Made by a program: the position numbers and the translations under genes
Shown: one piece after another, positions 8,547-14,449 of the stretch
How the letters are laid out: every line of letters starts with the position of its first letter
Numbering within the stretch: position 1 is the first letter of the stretch
Notes under the pieces: model-generated
Told to the model about the DNA's origin: nothing
What the model saw: the letters and a program-made list of their open reading frames with translations, nothing else
Database searches by the model: none
Source of the DNA: an uncultured Bdellovibrionales bacterium
GTDB lineage: Bacteria > Patescibacteriota > Minisyncoccia > Moranbacterales > UBA1568
Length of the DNA stretch: 64,000 nucleotides
Reading direction: 5' to 3'
Assembly: GCA_964530135.1 (NCBI GenBank)
Contig: CAZGXN010000005.1
Coordinates: 2,269 to 66,268, forward strand

Positions 8547-9278
8547 TTATTTTTCCGGAAACACAAAGTAATCACGATAGCGCTCATAAAGAGCAAGTGT
8601 CGCGACGAGATCACGGGCATTGTATCGGGCGATCTCCTTAAACTTTCCCTCCTTGAAAAGTCCGCGCACATCGTCTCCGGTCACGCCCTGCGCCTTGGGA
8701 CTCTCGATACCGAACGCACGAGTCCAGAGATGCAAACTCCCCTTGCGACGCAATGCACCATAAAACGACAGTTGATCGAGCAGATCGATATGCTTTGCGT
8801 TCCATGGTTGATAGTTCAGATATCGATTGGCCAGCAAATTTTTTGATGGCTTCACGCCCTGGATAGCCGAACGTACCACAAGAAAGGGCACATCAAACTG
8901 GCGACCATTGAAGGTAACGAAGGTATCATACTTGGTCGCGATGTCCCAAAATTTCTCGAGCATCGCTTTTTCTGAGAGTGCCTCAAATTTGCAGTTCTCC
9001 TCCTCGAAATCCGTATCGCTCGCATCCGCCGGTTGGTAGTAGACGGCCGACTTCTGCCGCTCCGCATCGAGAACCCCGATAGCGACGATCTGTCCGGTCA
9101 AGGGCGAAAACCCGAGACCATCCTCCAGATCCTTCAACGCCGTCTGATATTCGTCCTCACTACCACTCTCCCGCTTGATCCAACGGGTCAACGACTCCTT
9201 GGTCGTCTCATCAAGCGCCGAGAAATCCTCGCCGACTGTCTCGATATCAAAAATAAGTGTGGGCATATGTATCGCCAA
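8547..9278 (-). CDS. predicted 3'-5' exonuclease, RNase H-like, related to the PolB exonuclease domain (YprB-like)
   Basis: Exo I motif LIFDIETVG and a downstream FNGRQFDVPFL block typical of the PolB-exo-like family. Confidence 0.55.
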   Translation of the reverse strand: MAIHMPTLIFDIETVGEDFSALDETTKESLTRWIKRESGSEDEYQTALKDLEDGLGFSPLTGQIVAIGVLDAERQKSAVYYQPADASDTDFEEENCKFEALSEKAMLEKFWDIATKYDTFVTFNGRQFDVPFLVVRSAIQGVKPSKNLLANRYLNYQPWNAKHIDLLDQLSFYGALRRKGSLHLWTRAFGIESPKAQGVTGDDVRGLFKEGKFKEIARYNARDLVATLALYERYRDYFVFPEK

Positions 9279-9346
9279 AGAAGTTTCATACCGCCTTCGC
9301 TTGAAGCCTCACGCCAGCCCGTTCAATTCTCTTAGAATATCACAAA

Positions 9347-9381
9347 ACGAAAGGACCCCAGAAAAATGTAGGGTCCTTTGG
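9347..9381 (-). terminator. hairpin (AAAGGACCC / GGGTCCTTT) followed on the minus strand by a T-rich tract
   Basis: 9-bp GC-containing stem. Downstream minus-strand sequence is TTTCGTTTTGTG. Lies between tRNA-Glu and the exonuclease gene start. Confidence 0.4.
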
Positions 9382-9387
9382 TCTGGC

Positions 9388-9405
9388 AGTAGCCCCAAGG
9401 GGAAT
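9388..9405. repeat. 18-bp direct repeat of the tRNA-Glu 3' end (AGTAGCCCCAAGGGGAAT); second copy at 9582-9599
   Basis: Exact 18-bp match to the acceptor/T-arm end of tRNA-Glu, about 195 bp downstream of the tRNA 3' end. Confidence 0.5.
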
Positions 9406-9583
9406 TCCGCCTCGCTGTCTGCTGACAGCTTCGTTGCCCTGGGCAGCGCTGAATGTTCACTCGCCCACATTCATCGACACTCGCTTATCTCGCCTTCGCT
9501 CGATGCTCGCACCTGCCCGTTCGACTCCCCTTGGTATAAAAAAGAAAAAACCCACACAAACATGAAGGTTTATTCTTTGCTAG

Positions 9584-9655
9584 TAGCCCCAAGGGGAATC
9601 GAACCCCTGTTTCTTGGATGAGAACCAAGTGTCCTAGCCGCTAGACGATGGGGCC
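9584..9655 (-). tRNA. tRNA-Glu (anticodon CTC), no encoded CCA
   Basis: Hand-folded cloverleaf: acceptor GGCCCCA/TGGGGCT, D-arm GTCTAGCGGCTAGGAC, anticodon loop TTCTCAT, T-arm AGGGGTTCGATTCCCCT. Confidence 0.8.
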
Positions 9656-9730
9656 ATACTACGCTAAAGCTTCGTAATGGCAGGCCGTCTTTCGTCCGTT
9701 GAAACGGACTACGGAACGGCAGAGCCATTC

Positions 9731-9991
9731 CTACTTTTTATACTTCGTGATCTGTACTAACCGCTTGTACGCAAACGCTTTTCCTGAACCTGTCTTCAAA
9801 TACTTCTCGAAGTCTTTTGCCAAGCGCTCCTCTTCGAAAGCTGAGTAATAGACCAGCCTCCAGGGTATGAATGGTTTTGTTGCCTTCGACTTTTCTCCAT
9901 TATGCTCCACCAAACGTTTCCGTAAATCTTTTGTAAATCCATAGTAGAAATCTTTAGATTTCGGACTGTACAAAATATATACGTAATACAT
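9731..9991 (-). CDS. GIY-YIG nuclease superfamily protein (small standalone)
   Basis: MYYVYILYSPKSKDFYYGFTKDLRKRLVEHN is the GIY-YIG motif region. The track ORF N-extension was trimmed. Confidence 0.7.
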   Translation of the reverse strand: MYYVYILYSPKSKDFYYGFTKDLRKRLVEHNGEKSKATKPFIPWRLVYYSAFEEERLAKDFEKYLKTGSGKAFAYKRLVQITKYKK

Positions 9992-10170
9992 AGCCTGGCG
10001 AAGCAGTTCTGAAGCCTTGGCGAAAGACTGCAGGAGCGGCAGGAATCCTCTTCCTCCGTCGCTCGCGGTCGCGAGTGCGACAACGCTCGCTTCCTCCTCC
10101 AGAGCCTGGGTCAACTGAAAAGCCAAGCAGTTGGCTTTTCATCTGTACCCTCCGATTCCACATCACTCTT

Positions 10171-10213
10171 GCAAAGAAATCCCGCCCCGCTTCAGCGGGA
10201 CGCTATTTCTTTG
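10171..10213 (-). terminator. long hairpin (GCAAAGAAAT...ATTTCTTTGC with inner CCCGC-TTCA-GCGGG) immediately 3' of tRNA-Trp
   Basis: 10-bp outer plus 5-bp inner inverted repeat. No clear U-tract, so it may be a processing or terminator structure. Confidence 0.35.
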
Positions 10214-10284
10214 CAGGGGCGGCAGGAATCGGACCCGCGCTAAAGGTTTTGGAGACCTTTGTACTACCATTATACGACGCCCCT
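10214..10284 (-). tRNA. tRNA-Trp (anticodon CCA)
   Basis: Hand fold: acceptor AGGGGCG/CGCCCCT, anticodon stem AAGGT/ACCTT with loop CTCCAAA, T-loop TCCGATT. Sits in the canonical position after rpmG. Confidence 0.72.
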
Positions 10285-10338
10285 CTCTGCGCAACACAAG
10301 TGTTACACCAGTAAGTATACACGCTCGGACAACATCGA

Positions 10339-10479
10339 TTATTTCGACTCGTTGTGTACGGTATTCTTACGACAAAAGCGGCAATACTTCGAAAGTGAAA
10401 GTTTCTCCTTCACCTTCTTCTTATTACGCGAAGTTTCACGAGAAACGCGTTGACATTCGCTGCATTTCAATTTAGCCAT
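10339..10479 (-). CDS. rpmG: 50S ribosomal protein L33 (46 aa, not in ORF track)
   Basis: Manual translation gives MAKLKCSECQRVSRETSRNKKKVKEKLSLSKYCRFCRKNTVHNESK, an L33 zinc-ribbon with CxxC...CxxC. Confidence 0.85.
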   Translation of the reverse strand: MAKLKCSECQRVSRETSRNKKKVKEKLSLSKYCRFCRKNTVHNESK

Positions 10480-10603
10480 GTTTTCCTTGATCTTGCCCAT
10501 AGGTGTGACGCGGTTACTTCAAAATAATGGTTGCACTGTACGCGAAAAAACTGTCTTCGTCAATCTCCTTAAAAATTTTCTCTTTTCTTTCACCCCTCCC
10601 TTG

Positions 10604-10676: not shown

Positions 10677-10815
10677 TTTTTGAGTATATCAACGGATTCC
10701 GTTACGAATATTTTCCTGATATCTGATTACCCAGTAAAAAAGGAATATTCAGAGAGACTCCTCACTCCCCTCATAAAATCAAACCAATACTCCGAAAGTA
10801 TCATCTTGATTTTTG

Positions 10816-12062: not shown

Positions 12063-12647
12063 TTAGATTTCAAACCGAGTGAAGCTACCAACCTGGATAT
12101 TCTCTCCGATACGATGAATGTTCTCCGTAATAAGCGCCTGCACCGTCTTGGTCGGGTCTTTCACAAACGGCTGCGTGAGCAATGCCAGTTCCTCACGAAA
12201 CTTCTTCTCTTTACCAGCGACAATTTTCTGAGCGATATCCACCGGCTTCCCCTCGTTTCTTGCTTGCTCCTCCCAAATCCGGCGTTCATTTTCCACTAAT
12301 TCAGCCGGGACATCCTCCGGCCGGATATATCGCGGTGCCATAGCCGTGATGTGCAAGGCGAGATCATGGGCCAAAGCCCGAAACTCATCATTCCGACTGA
12401 CAAAATCCGTCTCTGAGAGAAGTGTCAGGAGTGTACCCACTCGATTGTTTGCATGGATATACGAGACGATAATCCCTTCACTCGCCGTCCGATCAGTCTT
12501 CTTCAGCGCTTTGACTTCGCCACGCTTCTTGAGGATCTCAATCGCCCGAGTTTCATCACCCTGTGCTTCATCCAAGGCTTTTTTAACTTCAACAATCCCA
12601 CCGCCAGTCTTGGCGCGTAATGCTTTCACTTGTTCCATGCTGCTCAT
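12063..12647 (-). CDS. tsf: elongation factor Ts (short form)
   Basis: MSSMEQVKALRAKTGGGIVEVKKALDEAQGDETRAIEILKKRG is the EF-Ts UBA-like N-terminus. Sits downstream of rpsB. Confidence 0.9.
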   Translation of the reverse strand: MSSMEQVKALRAKTGGGIVEVKKALDEAQGDETRAIEILKKRGEVKALKKTDRTASEGIIVSYIHANNRVGTLLTLLSETDFVSRNDEFRALAHDLALHITAMAPRYIRPEDVPAELVENERRIWEEQARNEGKPVDIAQKIVAGKEKKFREELALLTQPFVKDPTKTVQALITENIHRIGENIQVGSFTRFEI

Positions 12648-12691
12648 AAGGCGTTTTTTTTATTCTAGAAGAAAACAAGGAAATCCGAAAA

Positions 12692-13534
12692 TTAAGCTTT
12701 CTGTTCCACCGGCATCACCGGTTTCACCGTCCCACTCGCCGCTTTCTCAGAGGCCGCTGCAGCCTTCTGTGCGATCCCTCGTTCTACTGCCCGTCCAAGG
12801 AGGCCGAGAAGGAGACGAAGTGAAGAAAGCGCGTCATCATTTCCTGGAATCGGATAGTCAATCGCACTCGGATTGGCATTGGTATCAACAAGAGCAACCA
12901 GCGGGACACCCAGGTGCTCAGCCTCCTTGATGACCAGACCAGCTTCTTTCGCATCCGCAATAACGATTGCACCCGGAAGCTCTTGCATATTTCGAAGACC
13001 GCCAACTTTATGCTCTAATTTTTCGAGCTCTTCACTCTTGCGCTGTTGTTCAAATTTGGTGTATTTCTTGAATTCACCTGCTTCCACCTGCACCTCACTC
13101 TCAACGAGATACTTCGCTCGCCCGCGAATCTGGGAAAAATTTGTCAGCGTCCCGCCAAGCCAGCGATCAATGACATAGGGCATGCCGAGGCGTTGGGCGA
13201 GAGACTTTACGGCATCATGTGTCTGTTTCTTGACACCGACAAAAAGCACTGGTTTACCACTCTTGGCAACACTCGTGAGAAACTCTGAGGCCTGGTCAAG
13301 ACACTCCTTTGTCTTTTCCAAATTCAAAATATTGATATTCTTCCGCGTGGTAAAAATGTATTTTTCCATGCGCGGATGACGCCGGCTCTTGATATGGCCA
13401 AAATGCACTCCTGCCTTGAGCAATGACTCGAGAGAATCATCAATTCGGCTGAAATCAAACCCTGCGAAATACTCCGCTGCACCCTCGACCATGGGGGATG
13501 CTTCGGCCTGAGGAACCACTCTTTCTTCTGACAT
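12692..13534 (-). CDS. rpsB: 30S ribosomal protein S2
   Basis: LLKAGVHFGHIKSRRHPRMEKYIF S2 signature, with a C-terminal extension. Confidence 0.95.
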   Translation of the reverse strand: MSEERVVPQAEASPMVEGAAEYFAGFDFSRIDDSLESLLKAGVHFGHIKSRRHPRMEKYIFTTRKNINILNLEKTKECLDQASEFLTSVAKSGKPVLFVGVKKQTHDAVKSLAQRLGMPYVIDRWLGGTLTNFSQIRGRAKYLVESEVQVEAGEFKKYTKFEQQRKSEELEKLEHKVGGLRNMQELPGAIVIADAKEAGLVIKEAEHLGVPLVALVDTNANPSAIDYPIPGNDDALSSLRLLLGLLGRAVERGIAQKAAAASEKAASGTVKPVMPVEQKA

Positions 13535-13829
13535 ACTGCTTTATCCTTAAATTATTTACCTCTATCCTCAGGAATGACTCGCCCGAGATTCTTCTCGCAT
13601 GCCCACCGCTTGCCTGATGTCTGGAAAAAGTCCAGTAAAGAGCAAGAGTAAGCCGAGCGAGAAAAACAGGATGGGGCGCTCTGACGGATATGTGTGATCT
13701 GTACACTCGCCTCGATTTCCCAATCAGAGGCGGTAACAAAGCGCTCCTAGAATACGCGAGTGCATGAGACTTGTCAATTTCGGGGCAGCATGGTAGACTC
13801 GTCTATACATATTTCACTGTACGATCACT

Positions 13830-14183
13830 ATGAAAACTGATATTCACCCAACCTACTACAGTAAGGTCCCCGTCACCTGTGTCTGTGGCGCGGCGTTTAC
13901 CACCGGCTCAACCGTTGAGGCGATCCATACAGAAATTTGCTCACAATGCCATCCGTTTTACACTGGCAAAAAGAAATTCGTCGATGCTGGTGGCCGAGTT
14001 GATCGCTTCAAGAAGCTCGCTGAGCGTGCCGAAAAGACCAAAGCAACGAAAACAGCTGTTGCCGCAAAACGGGCAAAAAAAGTAGCCGCTGAAGAAAAGG
14101 CTATGGCTAAAGCTGAAAAAGAGACTCAGGCGGCCGAAGCTGTCCGTGTCGCAAAAATTGAAAAGGCTAAAAAGTCCGCTTAG
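13830..14183 (+). CDS. rpmE: 50S ribosomal protein L31 with Lys/Ala-rich C-terminal extension
   Basis: [27 protein letters not shown]...[11 protein letters not shown] is the L31 core (~70 aa), followed by a ~45-aa AKKAAK-type tail. Confidence 0.9.
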
Positions 14184-14196
14184 CTCGTGTATGCTC

Positions 14197-14227
14197 AAAA
14201 ACAACCTTGTTCCGGTTGTTTTTTGTT
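14197..14227 (+). terminator. rho-independent terminator after rpmE (AAAAACAACC-loop-GGTTGTTTTT TGTTT)
   Basis: 10-bp inverted repeat followed by a T-rich tract. Confidence 0.5.
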
Positions 14228-14449
14228 TGCGAGGGAACCAGAAAGGGGTTAGGCTACACAGAGCAGTTCCCCTAAAAATGAATGTCCAGTCTGACTAGTG
14301 AATTTACATCATATCCATCAGTATCTCCTGCCTCAGCCGATGAAGCAGTCGGACTGAGAGATGGGTGAATTCGGAACACATCCCTCAACGAACGAATGGA
14401 CAATCAGTCTTGAGTTCAATCATAATATAGGCTTATATAAGCCACAAAT

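Follow-up and report, generated by a model that had tools for sequence, protein, structure and literature searches.

Putative small, folded insertions stacked at the 3' ends of two tRNA genes in a Moranbacteria genome

Background

Transfer RNA genes are the classic landing pads of large genomic islands and phages, and a direct repeat that begins in the T-loop and reaches the tRNA 3' end is the classic identity block of tRNA-integrating islands. Casposons and the MITEs (miniature inverted-repeat transposable elements) derived from them insert at the 3' end of a tRNA gene or another conserved gene, where they produce a target site duplication (TSD) of ~14-15 bp of the gene end and use upstream gene sequence as recognition context. 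Among nucleases, T4 SegB is a GIY-YIG enzyme that acts in a tRNA cluster. Here we analyze a 64,000-nucleotide (nt) stretch of contig CAZGXN010000005.1 from a Moranbacteria genome (hereafter the window), in which at least three small, apparently selfish insertions are stacked behind the tRNA-Trp and tRNA-Glu genes, two of them belonging to predicted structured families. In place of large islands and phages, protein-less folded elements of 50-190 bp, with a tRNA tail in both orientations, use the tRNA genes here.

An initial annotation of the window had listed an exact 18-bp repeat of the tRNA-Glu 3' end, the tRNA-Trp and tRNA-Glu genes, hairpins, a GIY-YIG nuclease gene and an exonuclease gene, all of which are present in the sequence, and had read them as the scar or remnant of an integrase-mediated insertion. 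The insertion footprint holds, but the integrase scar is not supported: the insert is a recurrent structured element without an open reading frame (ORF), and no recombinase was recognized in 27 window ORFs scanned. A repeat of the tRNA-Trp end, an inverted copy of the tRNA-Glu T-arm (9519-9534), a truncated older copy (9292-9329) and the position of the repeat at the 3' end of a structured element had all been missed. We favor, with somewhat better than even confidence, the view that the 18-bp repeat is a target duplication made when an ORF-less, non-autonomous element, mobilized in trans, inserted at the 3' end of tRNA-Glu.

Results and discussion

The Tsf protein of the window was used as a query to collect 80 loci for comparison (designated by L numbers), almost all labelled Candidatus Moranbacteria/Moraniibacteriota, of the candidate phyla radiation (CPR). 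The best Tsf matches are 81-85% identical to the window protein. Closer relatives were reached through the GIY-YIG protein of the window, namely L089/L091 (79% identical), L087 (83%) and L112.

The 18-mer AGTAGCCCCAAGGGGAAT occurs in two exact copies, at 9388-9405 and 9582-9599, and at no other site in the 64 kb when up to three mismatches are allowed; the chance expectation at that tolerance is 0.06, and none of 100 shuffles contained two or more matches. Since the duplicated block extends from about T-loop nucleotide 58 to 2 nt beyond the discriminator, tRNA-Glu itself is left whole (copy T1), with a second, spare block (T2) beyond the insert. Read along the minus strand, the 194 nt from repeat to repeat comprise a hairpin with a U-run, an antisense arm (CCAAGGGGAGTCGAAC), a GC-rich scaffold of ~110 nt and the repeat. 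The arm (9519-9534) is antisense to the T-loop, T-stem and acceptor start of tRNA-Glu, with 15 of 16 positions complementary, or all 16 when one G.U pair is counted, and the inter-repeat segment folds better than its shuffles (z=-3.4). The hairpin at 9536-9581 was not called by the simple terminator scan, whose loops are limited to 3-8 nt. No ORF lies between the repeat copies. A small protein was considered and set aside: the 53-aa ORF at 9309-9470 has no Pfam match, and alignment gaps in the hairpin regions were read as disfavoring a conserved frame. For 9388-9582, Rfam returned nothing above chance-level miRNA matches, even at E<=10; tmRNA, SRP RNA, RNase P RNA, hammerhead and T-box identities were considered by eye and rejected.

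The 3' end of tRNA-Trp is repeated as well (10212-10230 versus 10029-10047; 18/19 identical, spacing 183, by repeat finder). The scaffold here combines a long hairpin with the motif CCCAGGCUCUGGAGGAGG, and its 5' arm GGAATCGGA (10151-10159) is antisense to the T-loop and T-stem of tRNA-Trp. In L089, L087 and L112, no element separates tRNA-Trp from the 37-nt leader and ATG of the GIY-YIG gene, which come straight after the tRNA; in the window the same leader is found only beyond the second Trp repeat. Because the leader abuts tRNA-Trp in these three loci, the hairpin, scaffold and 19-nt copy read as a precise 183-bp insertion into a site where the GIY-YIG gene was already present, and the hairpin at 10170-10215, absent from the empty sites, would have arrived with it. 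This boundary was taken from direct reading; a MAFFT alignment of the window with L089 placed the gap badly there.

Comparison with relatives gives the same picture at tRNA-Glu. The nearest relatives, L001 and L003, have the order rpmG, tRNA-Trp, 44-48 nt, tRNA-Glu, 4 nt, exo (a PolB-exo-like 3'-5' exonuclease gene), ispA, uppS, infA, with no repeat, and this backbone also holds in L002, L005, L010, L017 and L038. Relative to L001/L003, the window has ~510 bp more in the tRNA-Trp/tRNA-Glu interval and ~310 bp more in the tRNA-Glu/exo interval, and the original premise that a duplicated tRNA 3' end marks an insertion is borne out by the 4-nt, repeat-free junction of tRNA-Glu and exo in these two loci. 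In L089, tRNA-Glu is followed by a terminator (ACCAAAGGAC...GTCCTTTGG), CATGATATTCTA and then a full element of the family found behind tRNA-Glu in the window (type B, below). Beyond its second Glu repeat, the window has a homologue of this terminator (9350-9379) together with GTGATATTCTAAGA and no more than the initial ~38 nt of an older element (9292-9329). Since these L089-like segments lie past the second repeat, the window appears to retain an older, truncated Glu copy, with a newer copy placed between it and the tRNA.

The simplest event separates L022 from L021, which match at 100% over tRNA-Tyr, a 9-nt spacer and tRNA-Thr apart from 52 nt present only in L021. These 52 nt consist of a 36-nt mini-element and a 15-16-nt copy of the local tRNA end, ACCCTGCCCGGCCCAT. 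Compact tRNA-Tyr/tRNA-Thr spacers measure 5-9 nt and have no terminator, and expanded tRNA-Tyr spacers, with a terminator-like hairpin (X) and one or more elements, were found in ~26 of 66 loci. Because the compact state lacks a terminator, X would come with the element; the occurrence of both empty and filled sites indicates that the elements are mobile. Second copies, in tandem or truncated, are seen in the window, L060, L033, L067 and L038. A decayed homologue in the tRNA-Tyr/tRNA-Thr(GGT) spacer of the window (10677-10814) keeps the terminator and the motif GGAAAATATTCGTAACGGAATCC, and its 3' tRNA-end copy is eroded.

Two loci show elaborate versions of the layout. In L038 (~12720-13130), three to four units lie behind tRNA-Tyr, each ending in a tRNA-Tyr 3' block and a terminator, with the first two terminators identical; this alternation of repeat and variable unit resembles a cassette or CRISPR array. 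In L049 (6637-7580), a putative SDR-family dehydrogenase gene (its translation read by eye) lies between tRNA-Trp and an 18-nt 3'-end copy with one mismatch, which is preceded by a small hairpin, a cargo-bearing version of the same layout.

The initial annotation had proposed a BLAST search with the inter-repeat segment. Run for the Glu segment against the 80 loci, it matched, in other genomes, short cores lying downstream of tRNA-Tyr or tRNA-Trp, and so led to the same architecture there: tRNA, hairpin X, an arm antisense to the T-arm (T'), scaffold, T2 copy and, often, another terminator. Among 254 tRNAs in 81 sequences, copies of the last 16 nt (<=2 mismatches) within 700 nt were found 18 times downstream in direct orientation and once upstream, the latter an artefact of a duplicated tRNA-Thr. 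These counts bear on the reading of the repeat as chance, or as a side effect of the conservation of tRNA-like promoters or terminators. T-arms are conserved among tRNAs, and short matches such as GGGAATCGAACCCC do recur, but the 18 nt are exact and include the tRNA-specific acceptor strand, far above the expectation given earlier, and the pattern recurs 18 times on one side and in one orientation; this reading has a practically negligible probability.

Three scaffold types were distinguished. The window Glu element belongs to type B (core CAUUCAGCGCUGCCCAGGGCAAGGA), the window Trp element to type A (core CCCAGGCUCUGGAGGAGG), and a shorter type C (GGAGGGAUGAGAAG...) follows tRNA-Tyr in L001, L003, L010, L021 and L038. 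A covariance model (CM) of type B, R1, gave 17 matches at E<1e-6 in 1.28 Mb, to which the L089 element and its near-identical strain copies in L091 and L093 are added; the type A model, R2, gave nine. All inspected R1 and R2 matches lie on the tRNA strand, tens of nt past tRNA-Tyr, tRNA-Trp or tRNA-Glu or past an earlier element copy. Among the loci gathered, neither model matched outside Moranbacteria, nor beside the GIY-YIG genes there. An exact-pattern scan with the type B core gave six matches in a metagenome collection, of which only L086 is a true element and the rest are coding look-alikes, and none in a viral collection. In Rfam 15, only the tRNAs reached gathering score in the window and five loci, leaving types A, B and C all unmatched, and a literature search found no description of these elements. 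On this evidence, types A and B are classed as uncatalogued families of gene-less, tightly folded elements of tRNA ends.

The fold is supported by covariation in both types. In a nine-copy MAFFT alignment of type B, 27 pairs are predicted and 18 show compensatory changes, with helices such as GGGCAG:CUGCCC, GGUCAG:CUGACC and GGUGGC:GCCACC. In the 17-sequence alignment, 94.3% of cells are paired; shuffles give 78.7% and sliding the partners gives 26-46%. Double changes affect 21 of the 27 pairs. For type A the corresponding values are 89.8%, 76.9% and at most 56%, with compensatory changes in 17 of 30 pairs. G.U appositions outnumber A.C (33 versus 8 in the type B alignment), which argues that the tRNA-sense strand is the folding strand. 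The unpaired motifs AGGGCAAGGA and GACGCGAAA are conserved in type B.

These features are also what recommends a different account, in which the units are resident, host-useful small RNA genes (tRNA-linked antisense or tRNA-mimic) that derive from duplicated tRNA 3' ends and terminators and pass from strain to strain only when the tRNA cluster undergoes ordinary homologous recombination, the repeat serving as a needed tRNA-like 3' end or closing stem. Strong covariation, the conserved unpaired motifs, a G.U bias pointing to RNA on the tRNA strand, a terminator after each unit, scaffolds kept despite a decayed tail in L028, L050 and L020, and a 5' arm that follows resident T-loop variants all fit. 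Such genes would hardly be as patchy as the elements are (~26 of 66 tRNA-Tyr loci, with many empty spacers of 5-9 nt), nor would one expect truncated or eroded copies, two of them in the window, one scaffold type behind three different tRNAs, or the clean L021 insertion with its non-matching arm; no conserved promoter and no Rfam family match was found. We regard this account as unlikely, while granting it a real share of the probability.

The two tRNA-derived parts of an element behave differently. The 5' arm spans tRNA positions ~53 to 65-74 and T2 spans ~58 to 75. One scaffold type may carry Tyr-, Trp- or Glu-specific arms, matching the tRNA that it follows; the type A scaffold behind tRNA-Trp in the window is closest to that of L087, which adjoins tRNA-Glu and has Glu arms. 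Wherever the arm fell within the scored stretch (14/14 instances), its complementarity to the resident tRNA exceeded that to T2, and it tracks lineage-specific T-loop variants such as UCCGAUU (window tRNA-Trp) and UUCGAGU (L067). In the apparently young copies of L067, L034 and L039 the arm is a perfect antisense of 19-22 nt, and arm, hairpin and tRNA end form one long palindrome. T2 has decayed in L028, L050, L020 and L089, and the first three of these keep the scaffold. In L021, T2 is local sequence and the 5' arm fits another tRNA-Tyr allele, which indicates that T2 derives from the target and that the arm is borne by the element. We thus read T2 as the probable footprint of target duplication and the antisense arm as the putative working part.

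Three other explanations of the arm were rejected. Pairing of the arm with T2 does not account for T-loop positions 53-57, which the arm includes and T2 lacks. A tRNA minihelix mimic processed by RNase P was dropped as the main model since pairing of the arm extends to the discriminator and position 74, and since the majority of arms are not long enough. Copying of the local flank by fold-back could produce hairpin plus arm in L039 and L034, but fails at tRNA-Trp of the window, where the original flank is the GIY-YIG leader.

A bolder proposal is that types A, B and C form one re-targetable class, in which a folded scaffold of RNA or single-stranded DNA bears a guide arm of 10-22 nt, antisense to the 3' third of one tRNA, that would direct insertion beside, or action on, the matching tRNA gene and, if exchanged, would turn the scaffold to tRNA-Tyr, Trp or Glu, possibly with the minimal GIY-YIG nuclease as partner. 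We hold this to be distinctly unlikely at present.

Insertions, duplications, recurrence, a folded scaffold, tRNA-matching arms and accretion next to the tRNA are all observed. Under the target-duplication reading that we favor, each insert would bring a terminator-like hairpin, an antisense arm (against T-loop, T-stem and the 3' strand of the acceptor) and a scaffold of ~110 nt that folds on the tRNA-sense strand. The same process would have put the related type A element behind tRNA-Trp. Repeated insertion at one tRNA end would push older copies outward, where they decay, as 9292-9329 may exemplify. Mobilization would be in trans, by an enzyme encoded elsewhere, and the antisense arm presumably helps to choose the target tRNA.

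Several points weigh against this reading. Pfam scans of the 27 window ORF translations recognized no gene for a recombinase, transposase, Cas1, IscB, TnpB or IS110, nor was one seen beside other copies, and no autonomous relative came to light. The loci all belong to a single genomic neighborhood, around tsf or adjoining the GIY-YIG gene. Strong covariation and conserved single-stranded motifs could mark a host-beneficial RNA rather than a selfish element. In L068, L071 and L060, T2 is a tRNA-Trp acceptor allele unlike the resident gene, which speaks for att-type or homologous exchange, with the copy brought in by the element, more than for a fresh duplication. The duplicated block measures 15-19 nt in the window and L021 versus ~65 nt, terminator included, in L071, L051 and L038, and such variation is unusual for a single transposase. 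Lastly, elements of one scaffold type do not share a conserved hairpin X.

The interpretation nearest to the initial one sees the repeat as the attL/attR scar of a tyrosine-integrase island that entered the tRNA gene and was almost wholly deleted, leaving the GIY-YIG and exo genes as left-over cargo. The T-loop-to-3'-end repeat does resemble the identity block of such islands, the non-resident T2 alleles of L068, L071 and L060 fit an element-borne att copy, and newer copies lie nearest the tRNA as in island accretion. An integrase, however, was found neither among the 27 scanned ORFs nor beside any of more than 25 copies; the insert is a conserved, covarying scaffold of ~110 nt rather than a random remnant; neither repeat pair encloses the GIY-YIG gene, which is older than the Trp insertion, and exo is syntenic across the clade; and L021 displays a complete 52-nt event with local duplication. 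We consider such a scar quite improbable.

The GIY-YIG gene tells a separate story. The real ORF has 86 codons' worth of protein (86 aa), not the 131 aa of the mechanical ORF, and the motifs YVYIL...YYGFT...R..EHN...E are visible in it. It has 403 homologues of 80-100 aa, all catalytic domain only, in CPR phyla, Omnitrophica, Nitrospinae and Verrucomicrobia; its best relative in the PDB is the UPF0213 protein 1zg2. In nine of nine independent lineages inspected, a same-strand tRNA precedes the gene start by 37-130 nt (Trp in four, Asn in two, Gln, Ser and Ile in one each), and the leader, (G/A)TC(T/C)TTCGC..., is conserved in all nine. The early suspicion that this gene is mobile gained support from this anchoring at tRNA 3' ends. 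A tRNA 3'-end copy of 13-14 nt follows the gene in L100 and L106, a 52-nt copy precedes the leader in L115, and L095 has a partial copy. Of the 80 loci, 9 have GIY-YIG genes within the tRNA cluster. In the window, the gene is outside both repeat pairs and older than the tRNA-Trp insertion, and L089, L087 and L112 have it without the element, so its assignment to a repeat-bounded insertion was not upheld. It is best described as a separate, older and mobile-looking cassette, apparently anchored at tRNA 3' ends.

Within the cassette, 12-23 nt of the leader are complementary to a segment of its own ORF (the ...LAKD... codons): 10016-10029/9811-9824 in the window, 431-450/703-722 in L100, 2966-2988/3239-3261 in L095 and 1458-1469/1668-1679 in L112. 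This suggests long-range mRNA pairing or a DNA inverted repeat. The idea that the cassette has true terminal inverted repeats (TIRs) was softened, as in most lineages the leader finds its best complement at the LAKD codons within the ORF. In L115 (1222-1400; Peregrinibacteria), tRNA-Ile is followed by an ORF-less unit starting GTCCTTC..., an exact 52-nt copy of tRNA-Ile from anticodon stem to CCA, and the GIY-YIG unit starting GTCCTTCGC, which looks like nested or successive insertions. Just upstream of tRNA-Glu in the window (9656-9690, minus strand), the sequence reads GACGGCC, TGCCATTACGAAGCTTTAGCGTAGTAT, GGCCCC: the 4-nt start of tRNA-Glu, GGCC, is duplicated round a piece of ~27 nt that holds the conserved 3'-flank motif of the GIY-YIG cassette, and L089 does not have this piece.

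It may be asked whether the nuclease itself drives the insertions, by homing: it would cut tRNA genes near the T-loop or 3' end, repair would copy in the GIY-YIG cassette, and types A and B would be hitch-hikers or derivatives. The constant position of the gene and its leader in all nine lineages, the tRNA 3'-end copies of 13-52 nt in L100, L106 and L115 (partial in L095), the shared left end of the ORF-less unit of L115 and the GIY-YIG unit behind it, duplication boundaries (tRNA ~58-61 to ~74) resembling those of types A and B, and the genes inside the tRNA clusters of 9/80 loci would all follow, and T4 SegB offers a precedent. Yet the protein is an 86-aa catalytic domain with no DNA-binding module; the tRNA and any site within it survive insertion, which leaves immunity unexplained; types A and B have neither the GIY-YIG leader nor its end motifs, and were not found beside GIY-YIG genes outside Moranbacteria; and many element-bearing loci have no GIY-YIG gene nearby, and co-occurrence is loose. 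Homing by this enzyme therefore appears improbable as the source of the repeats.

A second GIY-YIG subfamily, ~40% identical, lies immediately upstream of tRNA-Trp or tRNA-Tyr in L005 (~13960-14300), L047 (~8560-8940), L074 (~13230-13600), L062 (~12075-12470) and L024 (~12280-12660). It is preceded by a partial 5' copy of the same tRNA (Trp up to the anticodon; in L062 to T-loop position 57), and this copy is followed by GC-rich hairpins (CCCCGCC...GGCGGGG) and CGATTC, in a mirror image of the window cassette.

ARAGORN and Rfam identify five minus-strand tRNAs in the window: Thr(TGT), Tyr, Thr(GGT), Trp and Glu(CTC). The order exo-ispA-uppS-infA is kept in L001-3, L005, L010, L017, L038 and L089; since exo is syntenic across the clade, it belongs to no insertion, and its earlier inclusion in one is not supported. 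In six more distant Moranbacteria loci read by eye, no secE-nusG was recognized after tRNA-Trp, where varied genes lie instead. The presence of exo and the missing secE-nusG would then be properties of the lineage and not products of a local insertion, and since both are lineage-wide, no operon appears to have been disrupted in the window. The claim of a broken operon context gives way to the observation that related genomes share the arrangement. Pfam searches of 20 further window ORFs gave no secE, nusG or integrase, all being housekeeping genes or without match; many window ORFs were left unscanned, so absence across the whole window is unproven. In the nearest relatives, the start codon of exo (PF10108) stands 4 nt past tRNA-Glu (L001 13267-13272, L003 13627-13632), leaving no room for a promoter of its own, which implies that exo is probably co-transcribed with the tRNA cluster there. 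The coordinates of the features are collected in Table 1.

Table 1 Features of the tRNA-Trp/tRNA-Glu region, in window coordinates
Feature	Position	Strand	Basis
rpmG (ribosomal protein L33), upstream neighbor	10339..10500	-	PF00471, E=1.2e-12
Decayed element homologue, tRNA-Tyr/tRNA-Thr(GGT) spacer	10677..10814	-	Pairwise alignment with L001 element after tRNA-Tyr
tRNA-Trp(CCA); T-loop-to-3'-end block 10212-10230 is repeat copy 1 (T1)	10213..10284	-	ARAGORN, Rfam, repeat finder
Terminator-like hairpin X directly after tRNA-Trp; arms 10170-10191 and 10194-10215	10170..10215	-	Repeat finder, terminator scan
Type A structured element; T2 is the last 19 nt, 10029-10047 (18/19 of tRNA-Trp 3' end)	10029..10166	-	CM R2 119.3 bits, E~3e-30; covariation
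Conserved GIY-YIG leader (GTCTTTCGCCAAGGCTTCAGAAC...)	9992..10028	-	31/38 identical to L089 leader
Stand-alone GIY-YIG nuclease gene, 86 aa	9731..9991	-	PF01541, E=2.3e-15, 57.1 bits vs cut-off 22.6
GIY-YIG 3' flank: hairpin CCGTAGTCCGTTTCAACGGACG and conserved TTACGAAGCTTTAGCGTAGTAT, abutting tRNA-Glu 5' end	9656..9730	-	Same motif after ORF in L106, L087
tRNA-Glu(CTC); block 9582-9599 is repeat copy 1 (T1)	9583..9655	-	ARAGORN, Rfam, repeat search
Hairpin X with U-run after tRNA-Glu, part of newer insertion	9536..9581	-	Minimum free energy fold
Type B structured element; arm CCAAGGGGAGTCGAAC 9519-9534, helices P2-P4, T2 9388-9405	9388..9534	-	CM R1 120.5 bits, E~4e-30; covariation
Older terminator, homologue of the one directly after L089 tRNA-Glu (ACCAAAGGAC...GTCCTTTGG)	9350..9379	-	Terminator scan; L089 comparison
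Truncated 5' part of older type B element (GAATTGAACGGGCTGGCGTGAGGCTTCAAGCGAAGGCG)	9292..9329	-	77-88% identical to 9491-9527; same position as full L089 element
PolB-exo-like 3'-5' exonuclease gene, resident	8547..9266	-	PF10108, E=4.4e-23; conserved exo-ispA-uppS-infA order

Further oddities of the tRNA cluster were seen in other loci. In L023 (~13160-13250) and L061 (~12370-12430), a truncated 5' fragment of tRNA-Thr (GTCGTTGTAGCTCAGTTGGTAG) and GC hairpins precede an intact tRNA-Thr. Downstream of tRNA-Tyr in L020, L043, L051 and L068 (e.g. L068 ~12390-12470), a tRNA-Thr(GGT) that ARAGORN did not call is seemingly interrupted after the anticodon loop (…CCTTGGTAA, then ACT..CTGCCCACC…GGAAACTGA…); this may be an intron or another tRNA-directed insertion. 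In L065 (~12330-12660) and L038 (~12390-12720), tRNA-Tyr, missed by ARAGORN, has an anticodon-loop insertion of ~250 nt that is not group I at Rfam gathering score, and upstream of it lies an ORF of ~200 aa, a putative LAGLIDADG homing endonuclease by eye.

Implications

If the elements are mobile, they would explain how tRNA clusters in tiny CPR genomes grow from 5-nt spacers to several hundred nt, they would supply terminators inside tRNA operons, and they would offer a natural example of a single scaffold redirected among tRNAs. The minimal 86-aa GIY-YIG protein, located at tRNA 3' ends across several phyla, is a candidate tRNA-gene-directed nuclease. Should the guide proposal prove true, it would represent a nucleic-acid-guided system targeting tRNA genes in CPR bacteria, new in kind. 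For annotation, it matters that gene order 3' of tRNA-Trp is not conserved in the Moranbacteria lineage and that tRNA-fragment repeats of CPR genomes should not be taken for integrase scars.

Comparison with known systems

Like islands and prophages that integrate into tRNA genes by a tyrosine integrase at the T-loop sublocation, the elements keep the tRNA intact, have a T-loop-to-3'-end repeat and place newer copies next to the tRNA. Unlike them, they measure ~50-190 bp, have no integrase, and possess a folded scaffold and an antisense arm, and in L021 the local target is duplicated.

Casposons share the TSD-like block at a tRNA end. The elements differ from them in host (CPR), in a duplication of 15 to ~65 nt, in the absence of casposon-type TIRs on sequence inspection and in that no Cas1 or PolB polymerase was found in the scanned ORFs; the neighboring PF10108 exo domain is syntenic and not mobile. 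The target preference of the casposon and its Cas1 'casposase' has been studied (PMC5137440).

With integron attC sites and the XerCD-used attP hairpin of CTX-phi, the elements have in common sense and antisense copies that can pair, structure conserved above sequence, strand bias, tandem arrays of hairpin-closed units as in integron cassettes, and a cargo version (L049). They differ in tRNA-derived arms that change with the tRNA, in a conserved multi-helix scaffold instead of a variable loop and in an antisense arm between tRNA and scaffold; Pfam revealed no integrase among the 27 window ORF translations, and no GTTRRRY boxes were noticed by reading, no motif search having been run.

Bacterial MITEs and small palindromes (Correia, RUP, REP/BIME, RPE) are likewise short, ORF-less, structured, patchy, intergenic and decaying, and often contain terminators. 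The elements described here differ in that they target the tRNA 3' end and that their arms copy the target and not transposase-binding ends. The ends beside T1 and T2 are not mutual inverted repeats, the duplication is 15-19 or ~65 nt, and no parent insertion sequence (IS) was found.

Free-standing GIY-YIG homing endonucleases such as T4 SegB, and the minimal UPF0213/YhbQ-like proteins, resemble the window cassette as patchy single-gene units in a tRNA cluster, with a duplicated target in other phyla. The window protein departs from the homing enzymes in having only 86 aa and no DNA-binding domain, and it scores below the NCBIfam cut-off for group I intron endonucleases (TIGR01453, 18.8 bits versus 56).

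The omega RNAs of IscB/TnpB and the bridge RNA of IS110 match the elements in having a 10-22-nt target-matching segment, which varies by target, joined to a scaffold of ~110-130 nt. Here, by contrast, the segment is antisense to the adjacent resident tRNA, no IscB, TnpB or IS110 was found in the window ORFs tested, and no omega-RNA family of Rfam matched, so the likeness is one of resemblance only. Tyrosine-integrase islands, casposons, attC and CTX-phi sites, bacterial MITEs and the omega and bridge RNAs each share features with the tRNA-end elements of Moranbacteria, and each parts from them on at least one defining test.

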